Below are positions 3,626 to 44,451 of a stretch of DNA of 44,666 bases, piece by piece. The position numbers and the translations under genes were made by a program. Under the pieces are notes generated by a model. It worked only from the letters and a program-made list of their open reading frames with translations. It did not search any database and was not told the DNA's origin. Source of the stretch: Brevinematia bacterium (GTDB taxonomy: Bacteria > Spirochaetota > Brevinematia > DTOW01); the NCBI GenBank assembly GCA_049968435.1, contig JBMFQU010000002.1, positions 1 to 44,666 of the forward strand, written 5' to 3'. The first letter of the stretch is position 1, and the number at the start of each line of letters is the position of its first letter.

Positions 3626-3913
3626 TTATTCCTCATCAAAATCATCTTGAGAATTAAAAATTTCATTAAAAACAGCTTTATCTTCAGGAAAAGAAAATTT
3701 TAAAGTGTAGTGATATTTAAGATCATCTATCTTTTTAAAAGAAAAGCCGTCAAAAATAACTTCAGGAACAGTGTCCATAATATCCATTAATATATCTTTA
3801 TCATTAGGATAATCTCCCTCAATATACCAATAAGGGTAATCATAAGAAACCATATCAGGAGAGAAAAAAGAAATAAGTAAATCTCGTATAGCAATAATCC
3901 TAGAATTATCCAT
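3626..3913 (-). CDS. Small acidic hypothetical protein (95 aa), not HslV
   Basis: ATG at 3913 with GAGGT upstream. The stop lies 3 nt before the hslU start. No recognisable family, and no Thr-protease N-terminus. Confidence 0.5.
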   Translation of the reverse strand: MDNSRIIAIRDLLISFFSPDMVSYDYPYWYIEGDYPNDKDILMDIMDTVPEVIFDGFSFKKIDDLKYHYTLKFSFPEDKAVFNEIFNSQDDFDEE

Positions 3914-3974
3914 CTATTACCTCTTCGATTAAAGTATAATAAAAAACTAAAAATAAATTCAAATAACAAGAAAA

Positions 3975-4400
3975 GTATTTAAAGAATTTTTTAAGAAACC
4001 TCCTTTTGCTTCCCGCCCACCCTCCCTTAAGTTCAGCAGGAGGACTTCGTCCTCCTATTGGTACCTCCATTTAGAAAGCACATTCATCAAATTATTTTAG
4101 AAATCACTCTTAGTATAATGACTACGCCTTCCCATTAGACACCTACTCTATAAGTAAAAAAGATAAAACCCTTACTTCTAATAGAAGGTAAGAATTTTTT
4201 AAGATACTTCTTTTTGCTCCCCGCCCACCCACCCTATAGTTCTTTATTAAAGTTCTAACTTCTTATTATGTTATTCCTCTTATCAAGATCTCCCTTTACC
4301 TATAAGTTCCTAATTCTTAATAACAAATACCGAATCCTGATAGAGTTAAAATTTATTTTAGATTAACGAAGGATAAGTATTCATTTTTAAGCTTAATTAA
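3975..4400 (+). repeat. Mosaic intergenic repeat family, about 2 full units plus fragments
   Basis: C-boxes cccgcccaccctccc (4012-4026) and ccccgcccacccaccc (4219-4234). Hairpin aggaggacttcgtcctcct (4038-4056). tacctccatttag box (4062-4074). Leader gaattttttaaga(a/t)ac occurs at 3984 and 4192. AT-rich terminal box at 4304-4320. Confidence 0.85.
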
Positions 4401-4439
4401 TACTTTTAATAAGCTTAATAATTGTTTTTTAAGTAATTC

Positions 4440-4464
4440 AAAATTTGTCTTTCAGAAGACAAAT
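4440..4464 (-). terminator. Weak candidate intrinsic terminator after mlaE
   Basis: 9-bp stem atttgtctt/aagacaaat (4443-4451 / 4456-4464) with a 4-nt loop containing the mlaE stop codon. A short T-run follows on the - strand. The stem is AT-rich, so support is weak. Confidence 0.3.
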
Positions 4465-9017: not shown

Positions 9018-10169
9018 CTAACTTTGCTTTTTGTAAATGGAATTTATTTTTTCAATTCCAACTTCAATTGTTTTGTCAGATGCAGCAAAAGATAATCTAA
9101 AGTTCGTAATTCTTTCAGAGAATACATCACCAGGTATAATCAAAACACCTTCTCTTATACATTCATCTACAAATTTTTTAACATTAATATCAGCATCTTT
9201 CGGGGAAGGAAAAGCATAAAAAGCACCTTCTGGTTTAACAACATTAAAATTATCACTAAGACCTTCATAAACCATATCTCTTTTCTTTTTATACCTTTTT
9301 ATATACTTTGACATATCATAATCAAGAGCTTTAATAGAAGCATACTGAGCAAACGAAGGAGCACAAACAAAAGTATATTGCTGTAATTTTATCATTTCTT
9401 TTATTATAATCTGAGGTCCAAAAGCAAAACCAATTCTCCAACCTGTCATTGCGTAAGTTTTTGAAAAACCACCAAGCAAAACTGTTCCTTCTGGATAAAC
9501 CGAAGCAATTGACCTATATTCACCATCATAAACAAATTCATCATATATTTCATCAGAAATAACCAGAATGTTATTTCTTTTAGCAATATTGTAAATTACA
9601 TCAATATCAGTTTTATCAAGAATCTTACCTGTTGGATTTGTTGGAGAATTTATTATTATCGCCTTAGTTTTTTCTGTAATTTTGCTTTCTATTTCCTTCT
9701 TTTTATTTGATATTTTGAAATCAGGGTATATATCAACGATAATAGGTTTTCCACCAAAAAGTTTAATTAGATGCTTATACATTACAAAATAAGGATCAAA
9801 AAATAAAACTTCATCACCTTCATTGAGGATAGAAAGTAAAACCAAAACCAAACCACCAGAAACACCTGAAGTTATGATACAATCGTCTTTAGTATATTTT
9901 GTACCTCTCTTTCTATTAACAACTTCAGCTAACTTCTCTCTAAGAGGTTCAATGCCTTGAGTTACCGTATATTTATTAAAACCTAATTCAATTGCTTTTA
10001 TTGCCTCTTTCTTTATCTCCTCTGGTATATCAAAATCTGGCTGACCTATACTTAGATTTATGGGATTTTCTATCTTCTGAGCTAAATCAAAAACCTTTCT
10101 TATACCTGAAGAATCAACCATTTTACTTTTTTGAGAAATAAAAGATTCAATATCATCTATCTTTTTCAT
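9018..10169 (-). CDS. PLP-dependent aminotransferase, class I/II (aspartate aminotransferase-like)
   Basis: PLP-lysine motif is SFSKTYAMTGWRIGF. NSPTNPTG motif is present. The track start at 10190 is a TTG, so I use the first ATG at 10169. Confidence 0.85.
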   Translation of the reverse strand: MKKIDDIESFISQKSKMVDSSGIRKVFDLAQKIENPINLSIGQPDFDIPEEIKKEAIKAIELGFNKYTVTQGIEPLREKLAEVVNRKRGTKYTKDDCIITSGVSGGLVLVLLSILNEGDEVLFFDPYFVMYKHLIKLFGGKPIIVDIYPDFKISNKKKEIESKITEKTKAIIINSPTNPTGKILDKTDIDVIYNIAKRNNILVISDEIYDEFVYDGEYRSIASVYPEGTVLLGGFSKTYAMTGWRIGFAFGPQIIIKEMIKLQQYTFVCAPSFAQYASIKALDYDMSKYIKRYKKKRDMVYEGLSDNFNVVKPEGAFYAFPSPKDADINVKKFVDECIREGVLIIPGDVFSERITNFRLSFAASDKTIEVGIEKINSIYKKQS

Positions 10170-10210
10170 AAGTATAATGATAATATCCAAAAGTAACTAA
10201 ATTCAAATAA

Positions 10211-11275
10211 GAATTTTTTGAAATATCCTCTTTAGGAGGGTTTTACCTTCTTTTTTATTACTCTCTAAGGAAGTTATTTTTGCTCCCCACTCGCCCACCC
10301 TTTAGTTCCATGTAAGAGGGTTAACGCCCTCCTACGAATACCTCCCTTTAGTTATTTATGAAAGTTCTAACTTCTTATTAGCCATCTCCTTTAGAAGAAA
10401 GGATAAAATGGTTATTCATAATAAAGTTAGGAATTTTAAGAAACTTCTTTTTGTTCCCCGCCACCCTCCCATAAGTTCAGCAGGAGGACTTCGTCCTCCT
10501 AATAGTACCTCCTATTTAGAAAGATAAGAAAGCAAACTTCTTGATTTTATAAACCATTTTTAGTATTCCCGCCCTTCTAGATTAGCGAAGGCTTCGTCTT
10601 CACTTCTTCCATTAGAAGACAAAATTCTACTCACTCTAATAGAAATTTAGTATTTTTTAGAAACTTCTTTTTGTTTCCCACCCAACCCACCCTTTAGCTT
10701 CAACAGGAGGACTTCGTCCTCCTAGTAGTACCACCTTTAGTTCGTTAGGAAAGTTATACCTTCTTATTATGTTCTTCCTTTAGAAGTAAGAAAGAATAGA
10801 AAATTTTACTCCTGATAGAATTAAGAAAATTCTTTTCGCATCCCGCCCAACCTACCCTTAAACTTCTATAGGAAAGCATCACCTCATTTTGGGATCTATT
10901 TTTATTTATTCAAAGTAGGTTAAATTCTATAAAAAAGTTATTTGCTATTCCTGATAGAAGTTAAGAAATTTTAGAAAGCTCTTTTAGTCCCCCACACGCC
11001 CTTTAGTGCGTTAAGAGGATTTCACCCTCTTATCAATATCTCCCTCTAATTCGTCCAGGAAAATTCTACCTTCATTTAGGTAGCTACTAAAAGTAAGAGA
11101 ATATAGGAAATTCATTTCTAGTAGAATTGAGAGTTTTTAAAATACTTCTTTTAGTAGCACCCCCTTACTTTTGCACGATAAGATAGCTTACACTCTAAAA
11201 TCTCTCTTTACCTATAGGGTATAAGATATTGATGATATTCTCCAATCCCAAATTTCTAATTCCTAATCTGGTAAA
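10211..11275 (+). repeat. 1.1-kb tandem array of the mosaic intergenic repeat family (at least 7 C-box units)
   Basis: C-boxes at 10285-10300, 10456-10470, 10568-10574, 10677-10692, 10842-10857, 10989-11001 and 11158-11165. Hairpins at 10316-10331, 10482-10500, 10587-10601, 10705-10723 and 11012-11032. ACCTCC boxes at 10339-10351, 10506-10519 and 10729-10740. Terminal AT-rich box at 11247-11270. C-box spacing is about 110-170 bp. Confidence 0.9.
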
Positions 11276-11328
11276 GGCCCTATCTTTTATTACTCATTCA
11301 CTAATTACTAATTGTGGCAATTAAATTT

Positions 11329-12936
11329 TTACCTATCCTTATTTATGAAAATTAAATTGGTATAACCTCTAAAAGAAAAATTAAGTTCTCCATTCGTTAT
11401 AGTAATAACATTACCAGTAAACAAATCAACGATCTTTTTATTTGATATAATACTTAAAATATCATCATTCAAAAATAACTTAAAATCAATTTCCGAAGGA
11501 TAGGAATAAACTATAACCAAAGCGAAATTACTAGTACTACTATCGTATCTAGCATAAGATACAACCTTATCCATAAAATCGTTTGATAAAATTGAGAAAT
11601 TCCCATTCACAAAAACCTTATTCTCATTTCTTATCTTTGATATTTTTCTTACATGGTTTAAAATAGAGTCTTTATCCTTTTCTTGGTCTTTAACATTGAT
11701 TATAGGATCAGGATTAACATATGTCCAAGGAGAACCTGTTGTAAAACCTACCTTTTCGCTATTTTCCCATACCATAGGATCCCTAAATGCCATATCACCT
11801 CTTAGATATGGTGAATTTATCATACCTATTTCATCACCATAGTAAATGAAAGGATTACCTGGAAGAGTAAAAAGAACAGTATAAAATAGTTTTAACCTTT
11901 CAAAATTGTCAGGTCTTTTAAAAATGAGATTATGAACTCTTGTAACATCATGATTTGAGCTAAACGGATACAAAAACTTCCAACTCTGTAAACTACCAGT
12001 TAGAGCCAACATTTCCTCAAGGTATTTATAAAATCTACCAATTCTTGGATTAAAACCTACTGTAGATGAAACAACTTCTCTAGTTTCAAAATCAAAACAA
12101 CCATCAAGAGCATCCTTATACTTTAAAACTGTTTTATTATCAGTCCAAACCTCTCCAACTAGAAAAGATTGAGGATTAACTTTTTTACAGAAGCTATTGA
12201 AGCTTTTAAGAAACATTATAGTATCTTCCGTATCAGCCTGACCTTCACCAGGTCCTATCTCTATAAGATATCTAACTGCATCTAACCTAAAACCACCTAT
12301 CCCCATTTCAAGCCAATATTTAGCAATCTTATATATTTCATTGACAACATCAGGATTTTTTAAATTAAGGTCTGGCATACCTGGAGAAAAAGCACTATAG
12401 TAATATTCTCTCCTTATCCCAGAATAACTCCATACTTCCCAAGGAGAATTGCCCTTAGTCCAAGGTTTAGACCATCCTATTTTACCCTCAACATTTGGTA
12501 TTTTAGGTACCCATATATACCAACTATCAAAAAATGGATCTCTTAACTGAGATTTTTTAAACCATTCTATTTGGGAAGAGGTATGGTTAATAACAAGATC
12601 AAGTAGAATCTTTATATTCCTTTTTTCAGCTTCCTTTACTAGTAATTTAAGATCATCAAGAGTACCAAACTGTGGATTAACATTATAATAATCGGTTATA
12701 TCGTACCCATGATAAGATGGGCTAGGAAAAGCTGGGTTAAGCCATATTCCACCAACACCAAGAGACTTTACATAATCTAATTTGCTAATTATACCTTTAA
12801 TATCACCTATTCCATCACCATCACTATCATAAAAACTTCTTGGAAAAATTTGATAAAAAGAAACCTCTCTATACCACTGCCCATAAGAAGGAAACACGAA
12901 AATACATGATACAAAAATTAACAAAAATTTTTTCAT
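11329..12936 (-). CDS. Secreted GH13 alpha-amylase-family glycoside hydrolase
   Basis: Signal peptide present. All four GH13 regions are seen: DLVINHTS, GGFRLDAVRY, VGEVW and SNHD. The N-terminal FYQIFPRSFYDSDGDGIGD calcium-site motif is also present. Confidence 0.9.
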   Translation of the reverse strand: MKKFLLIFVSCIFVFPSYGQWYREVSFYQIFPRSFYDSDGDGIGDIKGIISKLDYVKSLGVGGIWLNPAFPSPSYHGYDITDYYNVNPQFGTLDDLKLLVKEAEKRNIKILLDLVINHTSSQIEWFKKSQLRDPFFDSWYIWVPKIPNVEGKIGWSKPWTKGNSPWEVWSYSGIRREYYYSAFSPGMPDLNLKNPDVVNEIYKIAKYWLEMGIGGFRLDAVRYLIEIGPGEGQADTEDTIMFLKSFNSFCKKVNPQSFLVGEVWTDNKTVLKYKDALDGCFDFETREVVSSTVGFNPRIGRFYKYLEEMLALTGSLQSWKFLYPFSSNHDVTRVHNLIFKRPDNFERLKLFYTVLFTLPGNPFIYYGDEIGMINSPYLRGDMAFRDPMVWENSEKVGFTTGSPWTYVNPDPIINVKDQEKDKDSILNHVRKISKIRNENKVFVNGNFSILSNDFMDKVVSYARYDSSTSNFALVIVYSYPSEIDFKLFLNDDILSIISNKKIVDLFTGNVITITNGELNFSFRGYTNLIFINKDR

Positions 12937-12989
12937 GGGCTTATTATTTATACAAAACTACATAAACTACAAATTCAATAAAAATATTC

Positions 12990-13475
12990 TTTTTCTACTA
13001 TCAGTACCTTATAATCTTCTTAACAAGAAAGAGTTATTTTCTAAATAAGAATTTTAGAAACCTCTTTTTGTTCCCCACCCAACCCTCACTTAAGTTCTAC
13101 ACAGGAGGACTTCGTCCTCCTATAGCATCTCCTTTAGCCGTCCAAAGTAGGCTTCACCTTCACTGCTTTCAACTAATAAGCAAATTAACATTCATCCTAC
13201 TTTAGAAGTAAAAAGATAAAGGATTCACCCTAATAGAATGTTAGAAATTTTTTAAGAAACTTATTTTCGTTCCTCACCCAACCCCCCTATTAGATTGGCG
13301 AAGGATAAACCTACTTTGATACCTACCTTTAGCCATATAAAGTAGGCTGCATCCCTTTCTATAAGAAAATTATTTACTGTTTCCGTAGAGTTAAAAGCCT
13401 CTTACAAGAGGTTTAAGAAAATTATTTTCAATATCTCAAATTCTATTCTTAATTCTCAAATGCCATCTAAATGGT
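12990..13475 (+). repeat. Mosaic intergenic repeat family, about 2-3 units
   Basis: C-boxes at 13073-13087 and 13272-13287. Hairpin aggaggacttcgtcctcct at 13103-13121. catctcctttag box at 13126-13137. tagattggcgaagg module at 13290-13304 (compare 10578-10592 and 4358-4372). Hairpin cctctt-aca-aagagg at 13398-13412. AT-rich terminal box at 13435-13462. Confidence 0.85.
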
Positions 13476-13532
13476 AAAACTTTATAATTTACAATTTGAA
13501 ATCAGAAACAAATCAGTAGTATATTAATCTTC

Positions 13533-14006
13533 ATGAGTAAAAAAATTATCAAATTTACATTGACAATCCTACTACCTTTAAGTATCTCAAGTTGCATAAT
13601 AGGAGAAATACAAAGTGGCTTCCCATTAGATCCACCATTAGGATTAGAGCTTACCCAAGTTAGTAACAATTCTATACTAAGTGAGTGGTGGGGCTACAAT
13701 ACTGAAAGTTATTTCTCTGGATATGTAATTTTCATAACTACAAACTCAAATGATCTTTACCAAGATAGAAACTCAACGAACCACTTCAATAAACCTTATC
13801 TTACAAATTCCTTGGGCAACCTACCAACAATCTTTGCACCTATTCCCTCAACTACAACAAAATACTCATTTACGATAACTCAATTACCAAACGGAAATCC
13901 AATAACTACAAACATAACATACTATGTAGCTGTAGCAGCATATTCAGCATCAAAAAGTGCATTCAGTCCATTAAGCAACATAACCAACATTACACTAACA
14001 AATTAA
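13533..14006 (+). CDS. Small lipoprotein with FN3-like domain
   Basis: Lipobox is LSISSC. The pattern SILSEWWGY...GYVIF...YYVAVAAYS resembles a fibronectin type III fold. Confidence 0.5.
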   Translation: MSKKIIKFTLTILLPLSISSCIIGEIQSGFPLDPPLGLELTQVSNNSILSEWWGYNTESYFSGYVIFITTNSNDLYQDRNSTNHFNKPYLTNSLGNLPTIFAPIPSTTTKYSFTITQLPNGNPITTNITYYVAVAAYSASKSAFSPLSNITNITLTN

Positions 14007-14464
14007 ATTTTTACAATAACTAAACTACTTAAATCTCTATCTTTACATCTCTAAAAATTAGCAATATTTTCAAGTATTATCAAGGTAATCAACAAATTTA
14101 TCAACGCTACTCTTAAACATAATATCGAAATCAACGAACCCATCAGACATACTTTCTCTTTCCTTAATCTTAACTCTAGGAATACTATTTATGGCCTGTT
14201 GAAGCATAAAGCACCGATTGAAAATCTAAAATACCCTCGTTTTAAATTAAATGAATTAGAATTAGAATAAACATCTCTAACCTAGCAAATTATAATTCAT
14301 AAAATATCAACAGAAAGAGCAAAAAAGCAAACAACTTTCAACTAATATTTAAAAAAGAATAACTTCAAGTACTATAAATTATAAAAATTAAAATTTCTAA
14401 ATATCTTAAGTATGTTGAAAAGATATTGAACTTTTATATAGAATTACATTTGGCTGAGGGGTTA

Positions 14465-19980: not shown

Positions 19981-20506
19981 ACATGCCTCCAAACTTATCA
20001 ATTAGAAGAAAAGAAATTATAGTTTTCGCATCTTTTATCTTATTTCCCTTTATCATATCTATAATCCTATTGTAATCAATAATCTCAACATCAGTAAACT
20101 CATCTTCATCAAGTTCTTTAGCTGTTTCCTCCAAATCTTTAGCAAAAACAATATGTATAACTTCTGAACTATAACCTACTGCAGGGTAATACTCAAAGAT
20201 CTTTTTAGCATACCTAGCATTATATCCTGTTTCTTCTCTCAGTTCTCTAATAGCTCCTTCTAATATGTCTTCACCTCTTTCCAATTTACCTGCTGGAACC
20301 TCATATATATAATCCCTTACTGGATATCTAAATTGTTTTATTAATACAAACTTATCCTGACCAAAGTAAGGTAATATAGCAACAGCATGAGGATAATCTA
20401 CATAATCTTTTACCATCTCCTTGCCATTATACTCAATCTTATCAGAACAAAACGAAAATGATCTACCTTTATACAATGTCTTCTGGCTAATAATTCTATA
20501 ATCCAT
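19970..20506 (-). CDS. NUDIX hydrolase (ADP-ribose pyrophosphatase-like)
   Basis: The Nudix box GKLERGEDILEGAIRELREETGY is intact. Size and N-terminal beta domain resemble NudF/ADPRase. Confidence 0.85.
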   Translation of the reverse strand: MDYRIISQKTLYKGRSFSFCSDKIEYNGKEMVKDYVDYPHAVAILPYFGQDKFVLIKQFRYPVRDYIYEVPAGKLERGEDILEGAIRELREETGYNARYAKKIFEYYPAVGYSSEVIHIVFAKDLEETAKELDEDEFTDVEIIDYNRIIDMIKGNKIKDAKTIISFLLIDKFGGMYEI

Positions 20507-20583
20507 ATAACTATATTATTTAGGAACATTGATCATTTTTAAAGTTTTTAAAGAAAATAATTAAAAAAGTAATTTTAAAAATA

Positions 20584-20613
20584 TTGAATAATAACCTCAA
20601 GGTAGTTTAATAT
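20584..20613 (+). promoter_or_regulatory. Candidate sigma70-type promoter for the macro-domain gene, implying a near-leaderless mRNA
   Basis: TTGAAT (20584-20589), 18-nt spacer, TAATAT (20608-20613). The ATG at 20625 lies only 11 nt after the -10 box, and no SD sequence is present. Confidence 0.3.
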
Positions 20614-20624
20614 AAACCCTTGAT

Positions 20625-21170
20625 ATGACTAGAGAATTTCTTAATGGTCTTGTAGTTGTCAAAGTAGGAGACATTACAGAAGAAGATGTATGTGCTATTG
20701 TAAATGCTGCAAATTCTTCTTTGATGGGTGGTGGTGGAGTAGATGGTGCTATCCACAGAAAAGGTGGACCAGAAATCCTTGAAGAGTGTAAGAAAATAAG
20801 GCAAACACAGTACCCTAACGGATTACCAGTAGGCGAAGCTGTAGCAACAACAGCAGGTAACCTTAAAGCAAAATATGTAATACATACAGTAGGTCCTATA
20901 TGGTATGGAGGAAATCAAGATGAAGAAAAATTACTAGCAAACGCTTACAGAAATAGCCTAAAGTTAGCAGAAGAATTAGGTTGCAAAACAATTTCATTCC
21001 CAGCAATATCAACAGGCGCGTATGGATATCCAAAAGAGAAAGCAGCAGAAGTTGTATGTAAAGTTCTAAAAGAATATTCAAGTTCTCCAAAACTAAAAAA
21101 AATTAATCTAGTATTCTTCTCCCAGCAAGACTTTGATATATTCGTTAGAGTAGCAGAGAGTTTTATATAA
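20625..21170 (+). CDS. Macro domain protein (O-acetyl-ADP-ribose deacetylase, YmdB-like)
   Basis: [34 protein letters not shown] and the later [12 protein letters not shown] are canonical macro-domain motifs. Confidence 0.9.
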
Positions 21171-22346
21171 ATGGAACAAGAAAAGATACTTTTTTACCTA
21201 TACTTCTCAATATTATTTGGTACAATCCTTTACATGGTAAGCATAATATCATTTGCCTACTTTTCCAAAACAAAAAGATTAAAAATTATTTCAATAAATG
21301 CAGTTATGGCATCAATAGGTTACATAATAGGATCAACAGGTATATTTTTATTAAAGGACAGCAACTTTGTATTCTTTTTTGGTAGCTTAGTTTATTTCAC
21401 TAAATTTTTCTTTGAAACAAAAATGTCAAATTCATTAAACTACTCCTCAAAAAACTACCTTATATTCCATATAGTAAATGGAATTCTAGTTATAATTTTA
21501 ATACTATTACCTTTCTTAAAAGTTAATAACAATTTAATCTACATATTCATTGTAATACTGAATAACATTTCTATAAGCACAGGATGGTTTTTAACTAAAA
21601 ATCTAAGAATATTAAGTATAAATAATATTATTTCTATACTTTTTATACTCGTACTCTACCAGTTACCTTACCTTGGAATACTTTTTTCGTTCATACCCTA
21701 TGCAATAAATTCAATATACATAACTTCAAAGGAATATCTAAATACTGTAAAATCCCTAGAAGTGCTAAGCGAGCACAAAGATATCATAATAGAATCAAAA
21801 TTATCACAATTTAAAGATTTCATATACAATCTAATAAATAGGGTTGAAGCAAGATATCCTCAAAGGAAAATGCACTCAATAAATGTAACAAACATCGCGG
21901 TAGGAATAAGTCTAGAACTAAACCTTGAGGATAAAATAATACAAACAATAAAAGAAGGAAGTATGATACATGATATAGGATTCATTGGAATAGATCATCG
22001 CAAATTAGGAAAAGGTGAAGAAGATCCAGAAATAATAAAACATATTTGGATAGGAAGATACATTTTAGAAAACAGTAATATATTTATAAAATACATACCA
22101 ATGGTACTTTACCACCACGAAAGAAACGATGGCAGTGGCCCTGAAAGATTAACTGAAAATATAATACCTCTACATGTTAAGATTTTAATAGTTGCAGATA
22201 AATTTGAAAGGTTAATAAACGGAAGAGATGGAGAGAAGCTTTCAATAAGTGAAAGCATTAAATTCTTAAAAAAGAACACTGACAAATATGACATAAACAT
22301 TGTAAATGCACTGGAAAGATTCGTAATGAAGAAGTATTATTACTGA
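21171..22346 (+). CDS. Membrane sensor with C-terminal HD-GYP-type phosphohydrolase domain (divergent GYP)
   Basis: About 200 aa of multi-TM N-terminus. It is followed by HSINVTNIAV...MIHDIGF...LYHHERNDGSGPERL...ADKFERL. The canonical HHExxDGxGYP reads GSGPE here. Confidence 0.7.
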   Translation: MEQEKILFYLYFSILFGTILYMVSIISFAYFSKTKRLKIISINAVMASIGYIIGSTGIFLLKDSNFVFFFGSLVYFTKFFFETKMSNSLNYSSKNYLIFHIVNGILVIILILLPFLKVNNNLIYIFIVILNNISISTGWFLTKNLRILSINNIISILFILVLYQLPYLGILFSFIPYAINSIYITSKEYLNTVKSLEVLSEHKDIIIESKLSQFKDFIYNLINRVEARYPQRKMHSINVTNIAVGISLELNLEDKIIQTIKEGSMIHDIGFIGIDHRKLGKGEEDPEIIKHIWIGRYILENSNIFIKYIPMVLYHHERNDGSGPERLTENIIPLHVKILIVADKFERLINGRDGEKLSISESIKFLKKNTDKYDINIVNALERFVMKKYYY

Positions 22347-24142
22347 TTTATTTTCATAACTTCCAAAAATGCTTCCTGAGGAATACTTACATTACCAATC
22401 ATCTTAAGTTTCTTTTTACCTTCTTTTTGCTTCTCAAGTAATTTCCTTTTTCTAGTAACATCGCCACCATAACATTTTGCTGTTACATCTTTTCTAAGGG
22501 GAGAAATATCTTCTCTTGCTATTATCTTACTACCAATAGCAGCCTGAATAGCAATAGGGAAAAGATGCTTAGGTATAAGTTTTTGAAGTTTTTTAACAAG
22601 TTCTCTCCCTTTGTAATGTGCTGAATCTCTGTGTACCAAAAACGATAAAGCATCAACGGGTTTACCATTAACTAATATATCAAGTTTTACAATGTCAGAT
22701 TCTCTATAACCTATAAGCTCATAGTCCATTGAAGCATAACCAGAGCTAACACTCTTTAAAGTATCAAAAAAACCATATATTACCTCAGCAAGGGGCATTT
22801 CATACTTAAGCTCAACTCTTTTACTATCGATGTAAGAGATAGTTTTTTGTTCTCCTCTTTTACTTCTAACTAATTCTATAATGTTACCTAAATAAGTTTC
22901 AAGAGTAATTATTGAAACTAATACATAAGGTTCTTCTATACTATCAATCTTTGTAGGATCTGGCATTTCCATAGGGTTTTCAATAAATATAGATGTTCCA
23001 TCTTTGAGATTAACCTTATACTTTACAGTAGGCATAGTACTTACAACAGATACGCCAAATTCTGTATCAAGTCTCTCCATAACTATTTGCATATGTAATA
23101 AACCTAAAAACCCACATTTAAAACCCATCCCCATACTAATAGAATTAATAGGTTCAAATGTTATCGAAGCATCAGTAAGTTTTAACTTATACATAACTTC
23201 TTTGAGATCATTGAAGTCTTCATTTTCAGTAGGGAATATACAAGCAAATACCATAGGCTTAGGTTCTCTATAACCAGGTAGAGGAGCATCTGTAGGATTA
23301 CTAAATAGAGTTATAGTATCACCAACAGAAAAATCCGAAATTGATCTTATATTACCTATAAGATAACCAACTTCACCCGCTGCAAGGTTATCCTTCTTTA
23401 TAAACTTTAAAGCAATATATCCAACTTCCTCAACCTTATACTTTTTTTGTCCTCCCATAAATAGTATTTCATCTCCAGGATGGACAACTCCATCAAAAAC
23501 TCTTATTTTAGCAACAACACCTTTGTAGTTATCGTAAAATGAATCGAAAACTAATGCCTTCAAAGGTTTATCAATTCTTCCTTTAGGATGAGGGATTCTT
23601 CTTACAATCGCTTCCATTACATCTTGAATTCCTATTCCTTCTTTAGCGCTTATCAAAATAGCATCATCAGCAGGTATACCTAACTCATTCTCTATTTCTC
23701 TTTTAGTAGATTCAATATCAGCGCTAGGTAGATCAATTTTATTTATGACTGGAACTATCTCCAATCCTTCTTCAAAAGCAAGTAGAAAATTAGTAAGAGT
23801 TTGAGCTTGAACTCCTTGAGTAGCATCAACTAACAATAAAGCACCTTCGCAAGCTTTTAGTGCTCTTTTAACTTCAAAGTTAAAATCAACATGCCCTGGA
23901 GTATCTATAAGATTAAAAAGATAGGTATTTCCATCCTTAGATCTATATTCAAATGTTGCTGATTGAGCTTTCACAGTAATTCCATGTTCTCTCTCAACTG
24001 GCATAAAATCTAAAGCAGGTGCATCATCATTTGTCTTTTCTTTAACCCCCCCAAGTTCCAAAAGTCTATCAGCAAGAGTAGATTTACCGTGATCTATATG
24101 CGCAATTATTGAAAAATTTCTTATTCTTGTAATATCAAACAT
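22340..24142 (-). CDS. lepA: Elongation factor 4 (LepA)
   Basis: 600 aa. N-terminus is IRNFSIIAHIDHGKSTLADRLL, with DTPGHVDF and NKID GTPase motifs and the LepA-specific C-terminal domain. Confidence 0.95.
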   Translation of the reverse strand: MFDITRIRNFSIIAHIDHGKSTLADRLLELGGVKEKTNDDAPALDFMPVEREHGITVKAQSATFEYRSKDGNTYLFNLIDTPGHVDFNFEVKRALKACEGALLLVDATQGVQAQTLTNFLLAFEEGLEIVPVINKIDLPSADIESTKREIENELGIPADDAILISAKEGIGIQDVMEAIVRRIPHPKGRIDKPLKALVFDSFYDNYKGVVAKIRVFDGVVHPGDEILFMGGQKKYKVEEVGYIALKFIKKDNLAAGEVGYLIGNIRSISDFSVGDTITLFSNPTDAPLPGYREPKPMVFACIFPTENEDFNDLKEVMYKLKLTDASITFEPINSISMGMGFKCGFLGLLHMQIVMERLDTEFGVSVVSTMPTVKYKVNLKDGTSIFIENPMEMPDPTKIDSIEEPYVLVSIITLETYLGNIIELVRSKRGEQKTISYIDSKRVELKYEMPLAEVIYGFFDTLKSVSSGYASMDYELIGYRESDIVKLDILVNGKPVDALSFLVHRDSAHYKGRELVKKLQKLIPKHLFPIAIQAAIGSKIIAREDISPLRKDVTAKCYGGDVTRKRKLLEKQKEGKKKLKMIGNVSIPQEAFLEVMKINQ

Positions 24143-24187
24143 AATTCCATTAATTCTATAAGTTTATTTTATTTCTTATCAATCAAA

Positions 24188-24300
24188 GCTTAGAAATTAA
24201 ATTTTTGCTTCTCGTCCACATACTCTATTAGTGAGGGCTTTGACTTTATTTAGTGATAAATCTCATTTTTAAATTACAAATTCCTAATCCTAAATTCACA
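24188..24300 (+). repeat. Degenerate single unit of the mosaic repeat plus AT-rich terminal box
   Basis: ttagaaattaaatttttgcttctcgtccacatactctattagtgagggctttgac keeps the leader and a decayed C-box. The terminal box acaaattcctaatcctaaattcaca is at 24276-24300. Confidence 0.5.
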
Positions 24301-24306
24301 AGTTAG

Positions 24307-25458
24307 TTAAGTAGATTTTATTATATCAATCTTATTTTTCGCTACTTCCTTTACAGAAAAATTCTTAGCCCTATCAATTAAGTAATTTCTAAGCCTTTCT
24401 TTAGAAAAAACACCACTATAGAAACCTTCTAGAATTCTAGCAAGATCCTCAGGATCATCTTCTTTGAATATAAATCTACTATCTCCTATAACTGCTGGTA
24501 TCTCCCCCGAAGATGATCCAACACAAGGCGTACCACAAGCCATAGATTCAACAAGAACTCTCCCAAATTGCTCTTTCCACCAAGATTTAGTCCTTGAAGG
24601 CAAAACTAAAACATCTATTGCTTTATAAAATTCAAATATTTTATCTAGATTCAAAGAACCTAAGAAAAAAACTTTAACCTCTAACCTTTCAGAAATATCC
24701 ATAAGTTCCTTGTAGTAATTCGAACTTGTATCAATGCCACCAACTATATACAAAGCAATGTCCTCTTTACCTTTCTCTTTCATTATACGCATAGCAAAAA
24801 GTATTATGTCTATTCCTTTCTCTTCAGCTATCCTACCTACATAACCTATCTTTAATTTAAAATCCTGAGCCTCTGGCAAAAAAATACTTTTTGACTCTTG
24901 AGAATTAATTGAAAAAATATAATCATCAACAAAATAAGAAGTGGTAAAGATGTTTTTATTATACCCTTTCTTTCTATAAACTTCTTTACCATCAACTGAA
25001 GGTACAACAACTAGAGAATCAGAATTTTTCAAAGAAAACCATTCAAACAATCCAAAAGGGAATGGATGCTTTTTAAAGATATTTTCATCACTTTCGATAA
25101 CAATTTTTGATTTTGGAGATAAGAGTTTCGCAAGAAGCACAACAGAGAAACAGGCAGTAGAATAAGGCTCTTCCTTTATATAAATAACATCAAATTTTTC
25201 TTTAAATATAATAGCCCCAATCTTGAGAAGATTTAAATAAAAAAACGCCCTTACGTGATTAGTAAAAATAGTTTTGAGAGGATAGACCTTATAAAGACTA
25301 TCAAAATCGATGTATTCAAAACTTTGATATTTTGCAGCCTCATACCAAGACGAAGAAGTTATTATAGTGAGTTCAATATTACCATCTTGAACCATCTCTT
25401 TAAAAAGTTTCCTATAGTTTTTTTCAACGGCACCATGCCAAATAAACAAAACTCTCAT
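24307..25458 (-). CDS. Glycosyltransferase family 4 (GT-B)
   Basis: The C-terminal EQFGRVLVESMACGTPCVGSSSGEIPAVIGD matches the GT4 E-x7-E region. Confidence 0.85.
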   Translation of the reverse strand: MRVLFIWHGAVEKNYRKLFKEMVQDGNIELTIITSSSWYEAAKYQSFEYIDFDSLYKVYPLKTIFTNHVRAFFYLNLLKIGAIIFKEKFDVIYIKEEPYSTACFSVVLLAKLLSPKSKIVIESDENIFKKHPFPFGLFEWFSLKNSDSLVVVPSVDGKEVYRKKGYNKNIFTTSYFVDDYIFSINSQESKSIFLPEAQDFKLKIGYVGRIAEEKGIDIILFAMRIMKEKGKEDIALYIVGGIDTSSNYYKELMDISERLEVKVFFLGSLNLDKIFEFYKAIDVLVLPSRTKSWWKEQFGRVLVESMACGTPCVGSSSGEIPAVIGDSRFIFKEDDPEDLARILEGFYSGVFSKERLRNYLIDRAKNFSVKEVAKNKIDIIKST

Positions 25459-25511
25459 AACTCCAGCATTTTATAAAATGGGAAAATATAATCTCAAATA
25501 AAAGGAATAAT

Positions 25512-25612
25512 CCTTAGAAAACTCTTCTTGCTTCTCACCTACCTTGTAAAGCGTAATAGGACTATTCAACTCTTACAAATTCAAAATCATAAATCACAAA
25601 TTCTAATAAAAT
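25512..25612 (+). repeat. Degenerate single unit of the mosaic repeat plus AT-rich terminal box
   Basis: ccttagaaaactcttcttgcttctcacctaccttgtaaagcg keeps the leader and a decayed C-box. The terminal box is at 25575-25610 (acaaattcaaaatcataaatcacaaattctaataaa). Confidence 0.45.
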
Positions 25613-25746
25613 TTTAGAAAGTATATTCAGTATTCTTTCATCCTAAAGAAAAAAATAAAATCTTAAAGTCATAAAAGATAATAATTAGCAAATCTCTAAG
25701 AAATATATTTAAAATTCGATAAAGTAAATAAAAGGAGAACTAAAAC

Positions 25747-27138
25747 ATGGGTGAAGGTAGATTTGAAAAAACTATTGCTTGTATAGGAGCAGGTTACGTA
25801 GGCGGACCAACGATGGCTGTTATTGCTTATAAATGCCCTAAATACAAAGTAATTGTAGTTGATATTAGCGAAGAAAGGATAAGGAGATGGAATTCAGATT
25901 TACTACCTGTTTATGAACCTGGATTAGATGAAATAGTGAAAGAAGTAAGAGGTAAAAACTTATTCTTCTCAACTGATATAGAAAACGCAATAAAAGAAGC
26001 TAGCATAATATTCGTTAGTGTAAACACACCTACTAAAGAATATGGCGAAGGCAAAGGAATGGCAGCAGATCTTTCATACTTAGAAAATTCAGCAAGGCAA
26101 ATATTAAAATACGCAAATTCAGACAAGATAATCGTAGAAAAAAGTACAGTACCGGTAAGAGCAGCAGAAGCAATTGAGAGAGTTTTATCAACTTCAGAAA
26201 AATATAAGTTTGAAGTAATTTCAAATCCAGAATTCCTAGCAGAAGGTAGCGCTATAAAGGATCTATTAAACCCAGATAGAGTACTAATAGGATCAAAAGA
26301 AACACCTTCTGGTATAAAAGCTAGAGAAGAAATAGTCAAGATATATGAAAATTGGGTACCTAGAGAAAAAATAATAACTTCAAACATATGGAGTAGTGAA
26401 TTATCAAAACTAGCAGCAAACGCATTTTTGGCTCAGAGAATATCTTCAATAAACGCAATTTCAGCATTATGCGAAAAGGTAGGTGCAGATATTGATGAAG
26501 TAGCAAAAAATATTGGAATGGACAATAGAATAGGTCCTAAATTCTTAAAGGCTAGCGTAGGATTTGGGGGATCTTGTTTCAAAAAGGATATTCTAAATCT
26601 CGTTTACATCTGTAAAACATACGGACTTAATGAAGTTGCAGACTATTGGCTAAGAGTAGTTGAAATAAACGAATACCAGAAATCAAGATTTGTAATAAAT
26701 ATGATAAGAGAAATGTCAAACACTCTAGCGAATAAGAAAATAGCAGTTTTCGGATTTGCATTTAAGGCAAACACGAATGACACAAGAGAAAGTGCCGCAA
26801 TCACTATAGTTAGAAAACTATTAGAAGAAAGGGCAATCGTTAATATAACAGATCCAAAAGCTTTAGAAAATGCTAGAAAAGACCTTGAAGGGGTAAAAGG
26901 AATAGTAAATTACATAGAAGATCCATATGAAGCAGTCAAAGATGCTGATGCCATTGCAGTATTAACTGAATGGGAAATCTTTAAAAAACTAGATTATGAA
27001 AAAATATATACTATGATGAGGAAACCTGCTTTTATATTTGATGGAAGAAATATACTTGATCATAATTTACTTTACAAAATGGGTTTTAATGTCTACCCTA
27101 TAGGTAAACCACCTTTAACACATTTTGAGAGGTTCTAA
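25747..27138 (+). CDS. ugd: UDP-glucose 6-dehydrogenase
   Basis: NAD motif [13 protein letters not shown]. Catalytic-Cys motif [10 protein letters not shown]. Long (463 aa) form. AAGGAG RBS upstream. Confidence 0.95.
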
Positions 27139-30947: not shown

Positions 30948-31903
30948 CTATAATAAAAACCATCTTAAAAATAGCTTTCCTAAATTTCTAGTAAAGCTTT
31001 TGTGGTACAAAAAACCATGTTTTACTACTTTTAGTAATCTAACAAACCTATTTATATTTTCAACTTCCACAAAAAATTGAACTAACTCTAATATTTCATT
31101 TGGTAGAATATTACCATATCTTTCAACAAAATCTTTTGCTTGTAGTTGAAGAGCTTTAAGATCTTTTTTGAACTTATAAAATTCTTCTTTAAATTTTATA
31201 ATCTTATTTTTGATAGAGGTAAAATCAAAAACTTCAGCACCAGATACATTCTTACCATGTTGTCTGTAAAGTGCTGTTGGAATATCTATGTATTCTATTT
31301 TACCTAAAGCACTAACAACTAACGATAACCAATTATCATGCATTATAGCATTAGGAGGAAAAGGCAATGAGAGATCTTTTGCTTTCTTATTTATCATCAT
31401 CGTAAAACCAGGTCCTACTGGAGTTTGTAAAGCTCAGCAAAGCTCTTAATACTACCATTAACACATATATAGTCCCAAAAATACATTAATTTTTTCATCC
31501 ACCACCTTAGTATTCGTATATACAAGCAGTGGAATATCCTTTCCACATTTTTTTTAAGTTCTAGCATTTTGCTGAGTGTTATCTCTACTTTATTAGGTAA
31601 CCATACATCATCTTGATCTGCAAATATTACGTAATCTTCAGAAGATTTTGCTAAAAGTAATTCAAAATTTCTTAAAGCACTACCTGTAACGATATTATCA
31701 TTTATTAAATTTATAATATCAGGATATTTTTGATTGTATTCCATAAGTATTCCTAATGTTTTATCTTTTGAACCATCGTCATGTATAGTTATCTTTATAT
31801 TTTTATATGTTTGCCAGAGAAGCGATTCTAAAAGCTCTTTTATATATTTTTCTCCATTGAATGTAGCAACTAATATTTCAACTTTTGGTCCCTGATTAGA
31901 CAT
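30948..31903 (-). pseudogene. GT2 glycosyltransferase (rhamnosyltransferase-like) disrupted by three homopolymer frameshifts
   Basis: The N-terminal part (31903 downward) reads ILVATFNGEKYIKELLESLLWQTY...DDGSKD...FADQDDVWLPNK. The C-terminal part (to 30948) reads GFTMMINKKA...AIMHDNWL. The homologous reading changes frame at T8 (31548-31555), A5 (31477-31481) and A3 (31429-31431). The segment KKCGKDIPLLVYTNTKVVDEKINV is readable only in the alternate frame. Confidence 0.85.
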
Positions 31904-34025: not shown

Positions 34026-35378
34026 ATGGTATTAGGTAAAAAAAACTTTTTAATCTTAGGTTTTACAAATAGAACAGGTTTTCATGTAGCAAAGTTTTTA
34101 GTTAAAAAAGAATGCAATGTGTTTATCACAGATAAGGTAAGAGATAATGAAAAAGAAAAACTACTTGAAGAGGTAAAAGAAGTTGGTAAAGGAAATGTAA
34201 TTGATCTATTAGGTACAGAAGATGTTCCTCTAAATGAAATAGATATAATTATATCTAGTCCAGGTGTACCTCTAGAAAATCCTATAATACAGTCTGCACT
34301 AAAAAAGGGCATTGAAGTTATAGGAGACATTGAACTATTTTATAACCTTAACCCCAACATAAGATATTTTGCTATAACAGGTACAGACGGCAAAACAACT
34401 ACTACAAATCTAACTTACCAAATACTAAAATCTCATTTACCAAACACATTTATGGCAGGAAACGTAGGAATACCAATATTCTCACTAGAAGGAGAAATTG
34501 AGAATTTGGTAGTTGAAATAAGCAGTTTCCAAATAGATACAACAAAACTATTTAGACCATTTGTAGGAGCAATAACCAACATCGCGAAAGATCATCTTGA
34601 TAGATACCATTCCTTTGAAGATTATACAAATTCAAAGTTCTCACTATTCAAAAACTCAAAAGAAGAAGACTTCGCAATCTTAAATATATCGCTACTACCT
34701 TACTTAACCAGTAGAAATATAAAACCGCAAAAAATATTTTTTTCAGCGTTCTCAGGTAAGTTAGAAACACAACATAATCAAGTTTATTTAAAAGATAACT
34801 TCATTTTCTTGAATGATGAAAAAATAATTAATACAAAAAAAGTAAAACTTATAGGTAAACACAACATAGAAAACATCATGATAGCAGTAGCAACAGGTAA
34901 AATAATGAATATACCAAACGAAAAAATGGAGGAAGTTGTTTATAACTTTACTCCTCTACCACACAGAATGGAATTTGTAAGAGAGCTTAATGGAATTAAG
35001 TTCATAAATGACTCAAAAGCAACAACGATAAACGCAATGATTAGTGCAATAAAAAGTATAGATAATCCCATAATACTAATCGTTGGTGGGCTTGACAAAG
35101 GAATGGATTTCTCAGAAGCGATACCTATAATAAAAGAAAAAGTAAAATATCTAATAGCAATAGGTAGTACAAAAAATTTAATCATTGAAAAATTAGTTCA
35201 AAGTAGATATAAAAAATGCCAAAAGGTAGAAACACTTGAAGAAGCAGTAAAATCAGCAAAAGAATTAGGTAAAAGTGGAGATATAGTACTTTTTTCACCT
35301 GGGTACGCTAGCTTTGATATGTTCAAAAATTACGAAGATAGAGGAAATAAATTTAAAGAAATAGTAAATAGCCTATGA
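34026..35378 (+). CDS. murD: UDP-N-acetylmuramoylalanine--D-glutamate ligase
   Basis: Mur ligase P-loop AITGTDGKTTTT. DRYHS motif. C-terminal NDSKATT and SPGYASFDMFKNYEDRG. Confidence 0.9.
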   Translation: MVLGKKNFLILGFTNRTGFHVAKFLVKKECNVFITDKVRDNEKEKLLEEVKEVGKGNVIDLLGTEDVPLNEIDIIISSPGVPLENPIIQSALKKGIEVIGDIELFYNLNPNIRYFAITGTDGKTTTTNLTYQILKSHLPNTFMAGNVGIPIFSLEGEIENLVVEISSFQIDTTKLFRPFVGAITNIAKDHLDRYHSFEDYTNSKFSLFKNSKEEDFAILNISLLPYLTSRNIKPQKIFFSAFSGKLETQHNQVYLKDNFIFLNDEKIINTKKVKLIGKHNIENIMIAVATGKIMNIPNEKMEEVVYNFTPLPHRMEFVRELNGIKFINDSKATTINAMISAIKSIDNPIILIVGGLDKGMDFSEAIPIIKEKVKYLIAIGSTKNLIIEKLVQSRYKKCQKVETLEEAVKSAKELGKSGDIVLFSPGYASFDMFKNYEDRGNKFKEIVNSL

Positions 35379-35596
35379 TAATAGAAGTAAAAGTAAAACC
35401 AAAATCATCAAAAGAGGGATTTTTAAAAATAGAAGAAAGGAAATTCGAGGTAAGCGTAATTGAGCCACCCGAAAAAGGTAAGGCAAATAAAAGAGTCATA
35501 GAAATACTATCAGAACACTTCAAAGTACCAAAGAGCAATATAAAACTCATAAAAGGAGAAACATCGAAAATAAAGTTATTTGAAATAACTATTTAA
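35375..35596 (+). CDS. DUF167 (YggU-like, UPF0235) small protein
   Basis: VKVKPKSSKEGF...PPEKGKANKRVIEILSEHFKVPKSNIKLIKGETSKIK matches the DUF167 pattern. It shares an ATGA overlap with the murD stop. Confidence 0.7.
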   Translation: MIIEVKVKPKSSKEGFLKIEERKFEVSVIEPPEKGKANKRVIEILSEHFKVPKSNIKLIKGETSKIKLFEITI

Positions 35597-37048: not shown

Positions 37049-38158
37049 TTAGATTTCTTCTCTTTTAATCTTTCTATCAATCAAAAATAGTGTAGCAAAA
37101 ACTAATACAACCATAAATACTGACACAACAAAGATGTCAAAAGTTAAATCACTTAATCCTAATTGTTTTATAACGCTACCTCTATAGATCTTCACAGCAT
37201 AGTAAGGTGGAAATACATAAACAATAGGTCTTAACCAAGAAGGCATTGCCTCCATTGGCAATATAACATTACCAAAAAACAAAGGTAATACAGCAATCAA
37301 AACTCCTATCCTTATGGATTCAAAATTCTTCATAACTATTCCAATCATAATACCAATCGATATAGACAATATGAAAAATATAAAATAACCAAAGGCAGCA
37401 ATCCACATACCTTGATTAAAGTTCATATCAAATAAAGGTATGGAAACTAGATACATCAAAAATGTACTTAATGAAATAACAATCAAAAATACTATCAAAT
37501 ATGAAGTAAAAATTTCAAAGGAAGAGTAATCTTTAAAATTTATTTTAGTTCTATCCTTGAAAACAACAAAAGCAACTAAAATTACAAGTATAAAGAATAC
37601 TAATATAGTTATCAAGCCCGGAAGAAGATAATCACCAAAAACAACATTATCAATACCCATCGCTCCTTCTATTTCAAGAGGTAAGGGATTACTTCCAGTT
37701 GAACTTTTTGCTATATTCATAAATGTATTCATAATAGTTGAAGTTAATACTCCTGCAACAATAAGACTACTTTTATCTATTTTAAGTTTTATCTTTTCAG
37801 ACAACTGATAATTAGGATCTTCCATCTTTATCATCATTTCCTTAGTTAAATTTCTTGGGAATACCATAATTCCATAAGCCTTACCTGATTTGATCATCAA
37901 AAAAGCTTCTTCCTCATTCTTAACTTCAATTGCTTTTATAACTTTTTTGTCAACTTTATCAATGAATTATTTTGAGATGGAAACATCTCCCATAAAAGGC
38001 ATTTGAATTGGCTCATCGTAATTAACAATAGCCAAAGGTACCTCTCTAACACCATCACCAAATATAAGCCCTATTATACCTATTAAAATAAAAGGAACTA
38101 AAATAACTGCTACTAGAATCTTTTTATTATCTTCAACTACCTTTATCATAAATTGCAT
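37049..38158 (-). pseudogene. ABC-2-type transporter permease interrupted by one in-frame TAA
   Basis: A single reading frame runs from the ATG at 38158 (GGGGTG upstream) to the stop at 37049. It contains a TAA at 37967-37969 (...DVSISK*FIDKVDKKVIKAIEVKNEEEAFLMIKSGKAYGIMVFP...). The overall architecture (N-terminal TM, large loop, five C-terminal TMs) is ABC-2-like. Confidence 0.65.
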
Positions 38159-38300
38159 CAAATCACCCCAAGTTAAGATTATAAATATATATATTAGAAC
38201 TTTCAACAGATTAAAAATTAAAGATTCTAGAAAAATTCTTGTTTAAACCTTATTTTGACAAAGTAGAATATGCATATTATATTTGTTTATTATACAAAGC

Positions 38301-44379: not shown

Positions 44380-44384
44380 AAATA

Positions 44385-44393: not shown

Positions 44394-44451
44394 AAAATTA
44401 ATTATTAGCTAACTATTAAATTTGAAACAACATAATAATGTAAAAAAAATA

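Follow-up and report, generated by a model that had tools for sequence, protein, structure and literature searches.

The complete 44,666-bp contig JBMFQU010000002.1 of an uncultured Brevinematia (Spirochaetota) bacterium (assembly GCA_049968435.1), referred to below as the window, is a piece of an AT-rich bacterial chromosome (approximately 30% G+C) in whose spacers we identified a modular non-coding unit of 165-220 bp, present in approximately 17 copies over seven intergenic sites and lying on the + strand throughout. This repeat looks like a previously undescribed, lineage-specific, non-coding extragenic family of the REP/BIME/BOX sort. We read it as a non-autonomous selfish or duplicative element that spread in a strand-specific manner into spacer DNA and was then reworked by unequal recombination, with any RNA effects being secondary, and we give this reading a probability of roughly 45%; it is the mode of spread and any function that we infer. 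The genes of the window are of the housekeeping type and include lepA, UDP-glucose dehydrogenase, glycosyltransferases, murD, a flgD-domain gene, and mlaE-like and lolCE-like permeases. A sequence-only reading of the same DNA had described a homologous modular family with no RNA family known to match, no terminal inverted repeats and no CRISPR-like regularity, and had credited it with invariant cores and selection for structure; the first part of this description is borne out by our results, but the invariant cores and the selection for structure are not.

Homologous copies are present at all seven sites originally pointed out, with boundaries shifted slightly to 1-160, 3985-4400, 10211-11279, 13046-13440, 24186-24300, 25508-25612, and 44437-44666; arrays are lettered here in site order, B being 3985-4400, C 10211-11279, and D 13046-13440. 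A nhmmer profile made from 11 unit cores and run against the window produced 12 strong matches (E-values from 6e-22 to 7e-12) and approximately five weak ones, and all 17 are intergenic and on the + strand. The weaker matches include 25514-25575 (E=3e-4) and 24191-24248 (E=0.08), scores which indicate that the copies at 24188-24300 and 25512-25612 are degenerate. A 26-nt pattern of leader and C-box, with up to three mismatches allowed, matched seven times, always on the + strand, against an expectation of 0.00 (0 in 100 dinucleotide-preserving shuffles), and similarity grouping of the repeats gave overlapping families of 58-79 nt with 60-87% identity. Repeats account for 2480 of the 4799 intergenic bases of the window (52%), that is, 5.6% of its whole length. 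The statement that nearly every large gap is filled was somewhat generous: copies occur in seven of the ten gaps longer than 150 nt, but two of these hold weak copies only, and the gaps at 14007-14425, 35379-35588, and 37901-38282 (210-419 nt long) hold none. The close similarity of distant copies was confirmed for 10988-11048 and 44463-44523 (87% identity over 61 nt), as was the finding that both ends of the window lie inside copies, which is the case because the window is a complete contig.

Segmentation of the arrays at T[TA][TA]AG was used to define the modules. Each unit is a string of approximately 43-nt sub-segments closing with a pyrimidine run and TTTAG (CCTTTAG), in which four module types can be distinguished: A, a leader with a C-rich box; B, a GC-rich hairpin with ACCTCC; C, an AT-rich hairpin; and D, a purine-rich segment with a CTGATAGAA box. 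In the best-preserved unit, starting at 10650, module A (10661-10697, 37 nt) reads aaacttctttttgtttcccacccaacccaccctttag, module B (10698-10740, 43 nt) comprises the hairpin AGGAGGAC-TTC-GTCCTCCT followed by gtaccacctttag, module C (10741-10783, 43 nt) comprises an AT-rich hairpin followed by ttcttcctttag, and the purine-rich module D (10784-10825, 42 nt), which extends into the next unit, ends with ctcctgatagaattaag. Modules B and C can be aligned to each other, C being the AT-rich homologue of B, and the unit is thus itself a higher-order repeat with a period of approximately 43 nt. All motifs named by the sequence-only reading were recovered (ctNatagaaNttaagaa, the leader, the C-box, tttag with the hairpin, tacctcctttag, and cctttagaag). 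Units are solitary or arranged head to tail in arrays, and their module content varies: the unit at 4193 lacks B, and those at 3985, 10430, and 13046 are long versions, the first two of them with extra segments. A second type (type II), represented by the units at 10963 and 44437, has a short C-box and a different hairpin, AAGAGG..CCTCTT. The copies along the window are the following (nhmmer E-values in brackets).

1-57, + strand: unit tail truncated by the contig start, with the end of a C-box and downstream modules (direct reading)
58-160, + strand: unit with leader, weak C-box, hairpin AGGAAGC..GCCCTCCT, and ACCTCC (E=6.9e-12)
3985-4192, + strand: long type-I unit with leader, CCCGCCCACCCTCCC, hairpin AGGAGGAC-TTC-GTCCTCCT, ACCTCC, a long spacer, and D (E=6e-22)
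4193-4400, + strand: unit with A and C only (no B hairpin), then a partial unit with the D box cctgatagag and attaacgaagg (E=1.5e-13)
10211-10258, + strand: incomplete module bordering the main array on its gene-proximal side (direct reading and repeat grouping)
10259-10429, + strand: unit with A, B (hairpin GAGGG..CCCTC), C, and D (E=1.1e-17), and with CCTTTAG at 10299, 10345, and 10388 (46 and 43 nt apart)
10430-10649, + strand: long type-I unit (E=1.8e-20) with an internal half-unit at approximately 10545-10649 that has the short C-box cccgccc and hairpin GAAGGC-TTC-GTCTTC
10650-10814, + strand: best-preserved unit (E=2.6e-19; TWWAG segmentation)
10815-10962, + strand: unit with intact C-box and degenerate hairpin (E=1.4e-15)
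10963-11129, + strand: type-II unit with short C-box CCCCCACACGCCC, hairpin AAGAGG..CCTCTT, and ATCAATATCTC (E=3e-17)
11130-11279, + strand: degenerate distal unit (E=0.29, leader only)
13046-13245, + strand: long type-I unit (E=4e-17)
13246-13440, + strand: unit with degenerate B hairpin (E=5e-13)
24186-24300, + strand: single unit, weak and decayed (E=0.08)
25508-25612, + strand: single unit, weak and decayed (E=2.9e-4)
44437-44602, + strand: type-II unit (E=4.9e-16)
44603-44666, + strand: type-I unit truncated by the contig end (E=5e-13)

The 1.1-kb array that had first drawn attention consists of six units, spaced 171, 220, 165, 148, and 167 nt apart, and one half-unit with a short C-box at approximately 10568. 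CCTTTAG was observed 18 times in the window (9.2 ± 3.0 expected); 10 of its 16 sites on the + strand fall inside the 2.5 kb of repeats, with 43-46-nt spacing, and none of its minus-strand sites do. Conservation is lower than the term invariant GC-rich cores had implied, since the core has only 14 invariant columns out of approximately 100, identity per column averages 67%, and four runs of three C residues occur in only four of the 14 C-boxes.

LepA of the window is 100% identical to proteins labelled 'Brevinematia bacterium'. Three metagenome-assembled genomes (MAGs) of the same species available at NCBI hold the same region with its arrays at 99.5-99.6% identity; the population is also represented in assemblies GCA_049969235.1, GCA_049699335.1, and GCA_049970515.1. 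Contigs from two of them end inside array D (L001 at window position 13314 and L095 at 13213), and such contig breaks at repeats suggest many more copies genome-wide. The decayed unit at 24186 is polymorphic among strains at 24212, 24228, and 24255. Five relatives (LepA identities of 92, 88, 87, 86, and 82%; approximately 90 kb) contain no profile match, no C-box, and no dispersed repeat of any kind. The relative with 92% LepA identity is syntenic, with genes 77-85% identical in DNA, and the absence of the repeat from it points to a burst confined to this lineage. The spacer upstream of lepA in this relative resembled a type-II unit by eye; this candidate was rejected, as its alignment scores lie inside the shuffled null. 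Among 1.5 Mb of retrieved loci, only loci of the same species match beyond the 22-nt selection word, and eight metagenome loci drawn by a 22-nt core were dismissed as chance, consisting of unrelated GC-richer DNA with no repeat context and a match limited to the selected word. The 26-nt degenerate core gave no matches in the genome collection, where the LepA query found, among the matches listed, distant taxa only (best approximately 59% identity), and pattern scans gave no matches in viral contigs. In the protein database, spurious open reading frames (ORFs) of the repeats used as queries found nothing at E<=0.1. Exact look-ups of the 489-aa and 535-aa flanking proteins returned none on record and thus yielded no assembly that extends across array A, C, or D, and the literature on Brevinematales or Brevinematia and repeats contained nothing relevant. 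As far as the available data go, the family is restricted to this species.

Several differences among these genomes concern DNA other than the repeats. Synteny with the 92% relative (L091 compared with window 20500-25800) covers UDP-glucose dehydrogenase, a glycosyltransferase, lepA, an HD-domain gene, and a macro-domain gene, and stops past the last of these, where a type II secretion ATPase-like gene (MshEN, T2SSE) replaces a NUDIX-CheX-HDOD block. Strain-level indels relative to MAGs of the same species comprise a 19-nt insertion in L001 at 14061, in a repeat-free spacer, and a 12-nt in-frame difference in the HD-domain gene between L002 and window 21653-21664.

The C-rich strand is the + strand in every copy, and the G-rich, purine-rich strand is the minus strand; a single orientation at seven of seven sites has a binomial p of 0.016. 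All sequence classes of the window are A+C-rich on the + strand, and GC skew amounts to -0.30 in minus-strand genes and is near 0, rather than the mirror image, in plus-strand genes, which indicates that minus is probably the leading strand; the gene-strand bias fits this assignment. Every array adjoins the start of a minus-strand gene, the minus strand being the sense strand of the adjoining genes. Arrays are found at six of approximately ten minus-strand transcription-unit starts, and reversed copies at none of six plus-strand gene starts (Fisher p = 0.034, hand count). A polarity tied to the chromosome strand, and thereby to replication, is mildly favoured over one tied to the neighbouring gene.

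Sub-families of the repeat are dispersed across loci. The best match of the unit at 3985 is the unit at 10430, at another locus (72% over approximately 217 nt), the units at 10963 and 44437 are 72% identical over the full unit, and those at 44603 and 10650 are 92% identical over 60 nt. For most units the nearest relative lies at a different locus (3985 with 10430 and 13046, 10963 with 44437, and 10815 with 13246), whole units being approximately 70% identical and 60-nt stretches up to 87-92%, and arrays C and D have in common the order of a long type-I unit and, further on, a unit of the 10815 type. Units or blocks of units have therefore moved between loci, local tandem duplication alone being insufficient. 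Exchange between copies may have been captured in L095 at 20804-20928 (window 13213-13339), where the first 90 nt of the unit at 13246 are 92% identical, compared with 99.6% elsewhere; this contig-end allele partly resembles the A module of the unit at 13046 and, upstream of it, the D module at 44575, and results either from recombination between copies or from a chimeric contig end.

According to the reading we prefer, units or unit blocks would have been copied between loci, and the arrays would then have been reshuffled by unequal recombination or conversion between copies. Spread would have followed a strand-specific, probably single-stranded route, as in IS200/IS605-derived elements and REP/RAYT systems; such a route fits the uniform polarity, the hairpins in subterminal position, the conserved short motif that punctuates the units, and the absence of inverted repeats at the termini. 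Effects on the host would be collateral: transcripts reading through from leading-strand genes would acquire extra stem-loops and Shine-Dalgarno-like GGAGG motifs, a situation known from REP, BIME, and BOX. A number of observations weigh against this reading. No transposase, RAYT, or TnpB is encoded among the approximately 40 genes of the window, and neither a target-site signature nor an empty site was found, the orthologous spacers of the 92% relative being unalignable. The copies are 60-87% alike, so that no recent mobility is evident; unequal crossing-over alone would also generate the hierarchical 43-nt periodicity; and the L095 polymorphism, lying at a contig end, could be an assembly chimera. 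Moreover, within one 44.7-kb stretch in which the array-flanking genes are all on one strand, replication-linked and transcription-linked bias are inseparable.

Some of the same features would be expected of inert, decaying duplications, in which a founder was amplified by slippage or unequal crossing-over with occasional segmental copying, with no mobility mechanism and no function. The hierarchical tandem structure (from 43 nt to 165 nt to arrays), the 60-87% identity between copies, the decayed copies at 24186 and 25508, the lack of significant covariation, and the absence from relatives are all in line with this explanation. However, local duplication alone cannot carry sequence to distant spacers, and the repeats occupy seven separate loci in 44.7 kb, with sub-families common to several of them, all copies intergenic and of one polarity, and further copies suggested across the genome by the contig breaks. 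We regard inert duplication as improbable.

The position of the arrays with respect to putative expression signals bears on both the preferred reading and its rivals. The signals recognized by consensus or folding are the following.

3933-3962, minus strand: promoter-like TTGAAT-18-TATACT, outside the repeat, between array B and the start of the gene at 3626-3913 (consensus match)
10177-10206, 24153-24182, and 25468-25497, minus strand: analogous promoter-like sites (consensus matches)
4437-4464, minus strand: terminator-like hairpin UUUGUCUUC-UGAA-AGACAAA with a UUUU tail, where the mlaE-like gene ends (-7.2 kcal/mol, z -1.89)

The promoter-like sites (TTGAAT/TTGATA/TTGAGA, 18 nt, TATACT/TATCAT/TAGAAT/TAAAAT) lie on the minus strand 4-25 nt past the gene-proximal end of four arrays, and transcription would meet the terminator-like hairpin before reaching array B; these matches are patterns in AT-rich DNA, and their number is not above shuffled expectation. 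In the lepA-upstream spacer of the 92% relative, a common stretch containing the promoter-like site can be recognized by eye, with divergence exactly where the repeat begins. If the signals are real, the arrays may occupy 'safe' DNA that is transcribed weakly or not at all, bounded by the terminator of one gene and the promoter of the next. Two more such patterns point into array D from its distal edge (13398-13459, minus strand): a promoter-like TTGAGA, 18 nt, GATATT, in which TG precedes the second hexamer, and after it a small terminator-like hairpin (CCTCTTGTAAGAGG, then CTTTT).

That the arrays abut promoter-like sites would also be expected if CCTTTAG, or the leader with the C-box, were a double-stranded binding site phased at approximately 43 bp (four helical turns) for a cooperative nucleoid or regulatory protein acting upstream of promoters. 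The 43-46-nt spacing of CCTTTAG is compatible with this arrangement, as is the fact that the leader and C-box are the best-conserved part of the unit. Regular spacing, however, is confined to two or three units, the supposed protein has no known candidate, promoter control is a poor explanation for units lying as much as 1 kb away from a promoter, and binding to double-stranded DNA does not require strict single polarity, which together make phased binding sites very unlikely.

The main rival of a selfish or duplicative element, although unlikely in our estimate, is a selected cis-acting RNA element on the minus, gene-sense strand, transcribed with the leading-strand operons. The mRNA would be stabilized or punctuated by its stem-loops and its unpaired Shine-Dalgarno-like motifs (CUAAAGGAGGUA), which would impede exonucleases or retain 30S subunits. 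REP hairpins and Shine-Dalgarno-like 5' stabilizers act on mRNA in this way. Predicted folds of the units are more stable than those of dinucleotide shuffles, especially on the minus strand (mean z of -1.66, compared with -0.98 on the plus strand; six repeat-free intergenic controls near 0), with z of -2.76 on the minus strand and -2.32 on the plus strand for the unit at 10650. A leader hairpin forms on the minus strand via G-U pairs in most units, with the 3' end of the G-box paired to the leader (GGGAAAC-AAAAAGAA-GUUUCU), and hardly forms on the plus strand, the summed local energies being -55.4 and -20.2 kcal/mol, respectively. Pairing in hairpin B survives the replacement of G-C by A-T that separates type I from type II, and the unit at 10259 has an A.C intermediate, which would be a G.U on the minus strand; the distinct variants of this hairpin are too few for statistics. 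Purines make up 56.5% of the minus strand of the repeats, which are in this respect similar to gene sense strands (53.2%) and different from the remaining intergenic DNA (46.7%), and 13 of the 38 minus-strand GGAGG motifs lie in the repeats.

Against these points, RNAalifold predicted no pairs on the core alignment and so gave no consensus structure, and covariation in the leader hairpin was not significant (79.0% pairing compared with 77.4% in column shuffles, with 98 of 500 shuffles reaching the observed value). Since pairing is no higher than in column shuffles, the leader helix may be a mere purine run opposite a pyrimidine run. Much of the repeat DNA may go untranscribed, given the promoter-like sites between arrays and downstream genes and the terminator-like hairpin before array B; arrays D and F sit between divergent genes; and the family is absent from close relatives and includes decayed copies. 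The proposed selection for structure is accordingly not borne out by the null leader-hairpin test, the failure of RNAalifold to find a consensus, the decayed copies, and the lack of any trace in five relatives, but the hairpins retained through some two-sided changes and the better-than-shuffled folding mean that the units may have a structural role.

Read on the + strand, the units could be arrays of genes for trans-acting small RNAs, each with its own promoter (the cTGaTAGAAT box as an extended -10 element), producing a C-rich, anti-Shine-Dalgarno-like RNA whose CCCNCCC boxes and ACCUCCUUU would pair with ribosome-binding sites. C-rich small RNAs are present in low-GC Gram-positive bacteria. 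A conserved CT(G/A)ATAGAA box lies approximately 30 nt upstream of each C-box, each unit has three CCUCC-type motifs, and, on direct reading, the ACCUCCUUU that follows hairpin B is similar to the 16S rRNA 3' end. Nevertheless, only approximately half of the units have a box with a final T, the base that is critical in that position of a -10 hexamer, and only two have the TG, and folding is weaker on the + strand; in consensus scans of the + strand, nothing promoter-like or terminator-like recurred at a fixed position within the arrays, although weak or atypical signals could escape such scans. The chance that the units are small RNA genes is accordingly slim. Slimmer still is that of elements controlling replication or transcription through a G-quadruplex on the minus strand or an i-motif on the + strand: the only four strict G-quadruplex motifs of the window (e.g., GGGTGGGTGGGCGGG, minus strand) are all C-boxes of the repeat, but four runs of at least three bases occur in only four of the 14 boxes, the others having one to three. 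As four-run potential is not conserved, the G-quadruplex was ruled out as a conserved feature of the family.

It is improbable, in our view, that the units are a functional strand-polar RNA or single-stranded DNA module unique to the lineage rather than junk. One version of such a module would consist of Shine-Dalgarno-rich, G-rich stem-loop cassettes transcribed with leading-strand operons and holding ribosomes or blocking RNases; its mirror version would imitate the 3' end of 16S rRNA with C-rich sequence, a hairpin and then ACCUCCUUU, and would titrate ribosome-binding sites.

Protein coding was considered and rejected. In agreement with the sequence-only reading, there is no conserved ORF: the open frames differ between units, and no start codon lies at a usable distance past the Shine-Dalgarno-like motifs. 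A 54-aa ORF at 3906-4070 (minus strand) has its ATG inside the unit at 3985 (ATGGAGGTACC...) and runs through the hairpin and G-box to just past the start of the gene at 3626-3913; the other units do not conserve this frame, which is probably spurious.

Brevinematia is a barely studied class, and if the density seen in the window holds genome-wide, this organism would rank among the small bacterial genomes with the heaviest known load of repeats in their intergenic DNA. Were the functional module true, it would amount to a regulatory layer made from approximately half of the intergenic DNA of the organism. The strict single polarity offers a test case for distinguishing replication-linked, single-stranded spread of extragenic repeats from their transcription-linked selection. 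There is also a practical side, as the contig analysed here ends in copies on both sides and two MAG contigs of the same species stop in array D.

Three further observations concern protein-coding genes of the window. A family-2 glycosyltransferase at 30948-31903 (minus strand) is represented by two ORFs of 162 and 150 aa, and by a single 322-aa gene in L095 (2226-3194); the split coincides with an 11-nt indel at approximately 31482 and reflects either a strain-specific pseudogene or an assembly error. A LolD-like ABC ATPase at 43675-44380 (minus strand), upstream of two FtsX/MacB-type permeases, is found as fragments at 43675-43887 and 43996-44247, and its start is closely preceded by a run of nine C residues at 44386-44394 (nine G when read on the coding strand); these features suggest a frameshifted gene or homopolymer sequencing errors. 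The murD-like gene contains an internal 22-nt tandem repeat at 34396-34444 (2.2 copies, Tandem Repeats Finder score of 70).

Comparison with known repeat and RNA families places the units among extragenic elements. In line with the sequence-only reading, which could match the units to no RNA family it knew, the family has no Rfam counterpart: Rfam 15 at gathering thresholds gave no matches in the entire window, and a permissive scan of 10150-13550, which covers the two largest arrays, returned only noise (E=0.85-9.4, 16-22 bits compared with gathering scores of 43-51). A tRNA scan of the window found none. Tandem Repeats Finder revealed no CRISPR-like regularity, whole units being homologous at 60-87% identity instead. 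An inverted-repeat scan of three arrays detected no arms at unit ends, in agreement with the claimed lack of terminal inverted repeats, and there are no direct duplications at array edges, so the units differ from miniature inverted-repeat transposable elements (MITEs). Strand polarity of IS200/IS605 elements follows replication direction. The units resemble elements derived from this group, which are palindrome-associated and move by 'peel and paste', in lacking terminal inverted repeats and in having hairpins, a short boundary motif, and uniform polarity, seen here within one 44.7-kb stretch of one replichore; in contrast, no defined left and right ends or transposase were identified in the window, the copies are old (60-87% identity), and the elements of that group show no internal periodicity of 43 nt.

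The REP (repetitive extragenic palindromes) and BIME (bacterial interspersed mosaic elements) of enterobacteria and pseudomonads are documented to act in mRNA stability and to bind host proteins (PMC3184786). Both these elements and the present units are high-copy, non-coding, strictly extragenic, clustered between genes, and assembly-breaking, and both contain GC-rich stem-loops within a mosaic of conserved motifs. A REP, however, is an imperfect palindrome of only 20-40 nt that often starts with a conserved GTAG head, whereas the units described here are 165-220 nt long, modular, non-palindromic overall, and without GTAG. BIMEs alternate the orientation of their REPs, whereas the present units all have one orientation (17/17 on the + strand), are punctuated by CCTTTAG, and carry a C-rich box, with hairpin B being only one of four modules. 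BOX elements of Streptococcus pneumoniae are modular, with variable module content, intergenic, predicted to fold, and non-autonomous (PMC3184786). The units share with them distinct module types whose content varies from copy to copy, a likeness of architecture. The BOX layout is boxA-(boxB)n-boxC and both orientations occur, whereas here, in a host of another phylum, an A-B-C-D order is repeated head to tail with a single polarity. NIMEs (neisserial intergenic mosaic elements) are arrays of 50-200 bp repeat units that fill intergenic regions as a mosaic of unit types (PMC3184786). The arrays of the window are likewise intergenic and mosaic in unit types. Each NIME unit is flanked by dRS3 inverted repeats of approximately 20 bp, and flanking inverted repeats of this kind were not found here. 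Although the repeat of the window is not palindromic, forms no inverted pairs, has no flanking inverted repeats, and keeps one polarity, we read REP/BIME, BOX, and NIME as the families nearest to it in kind.

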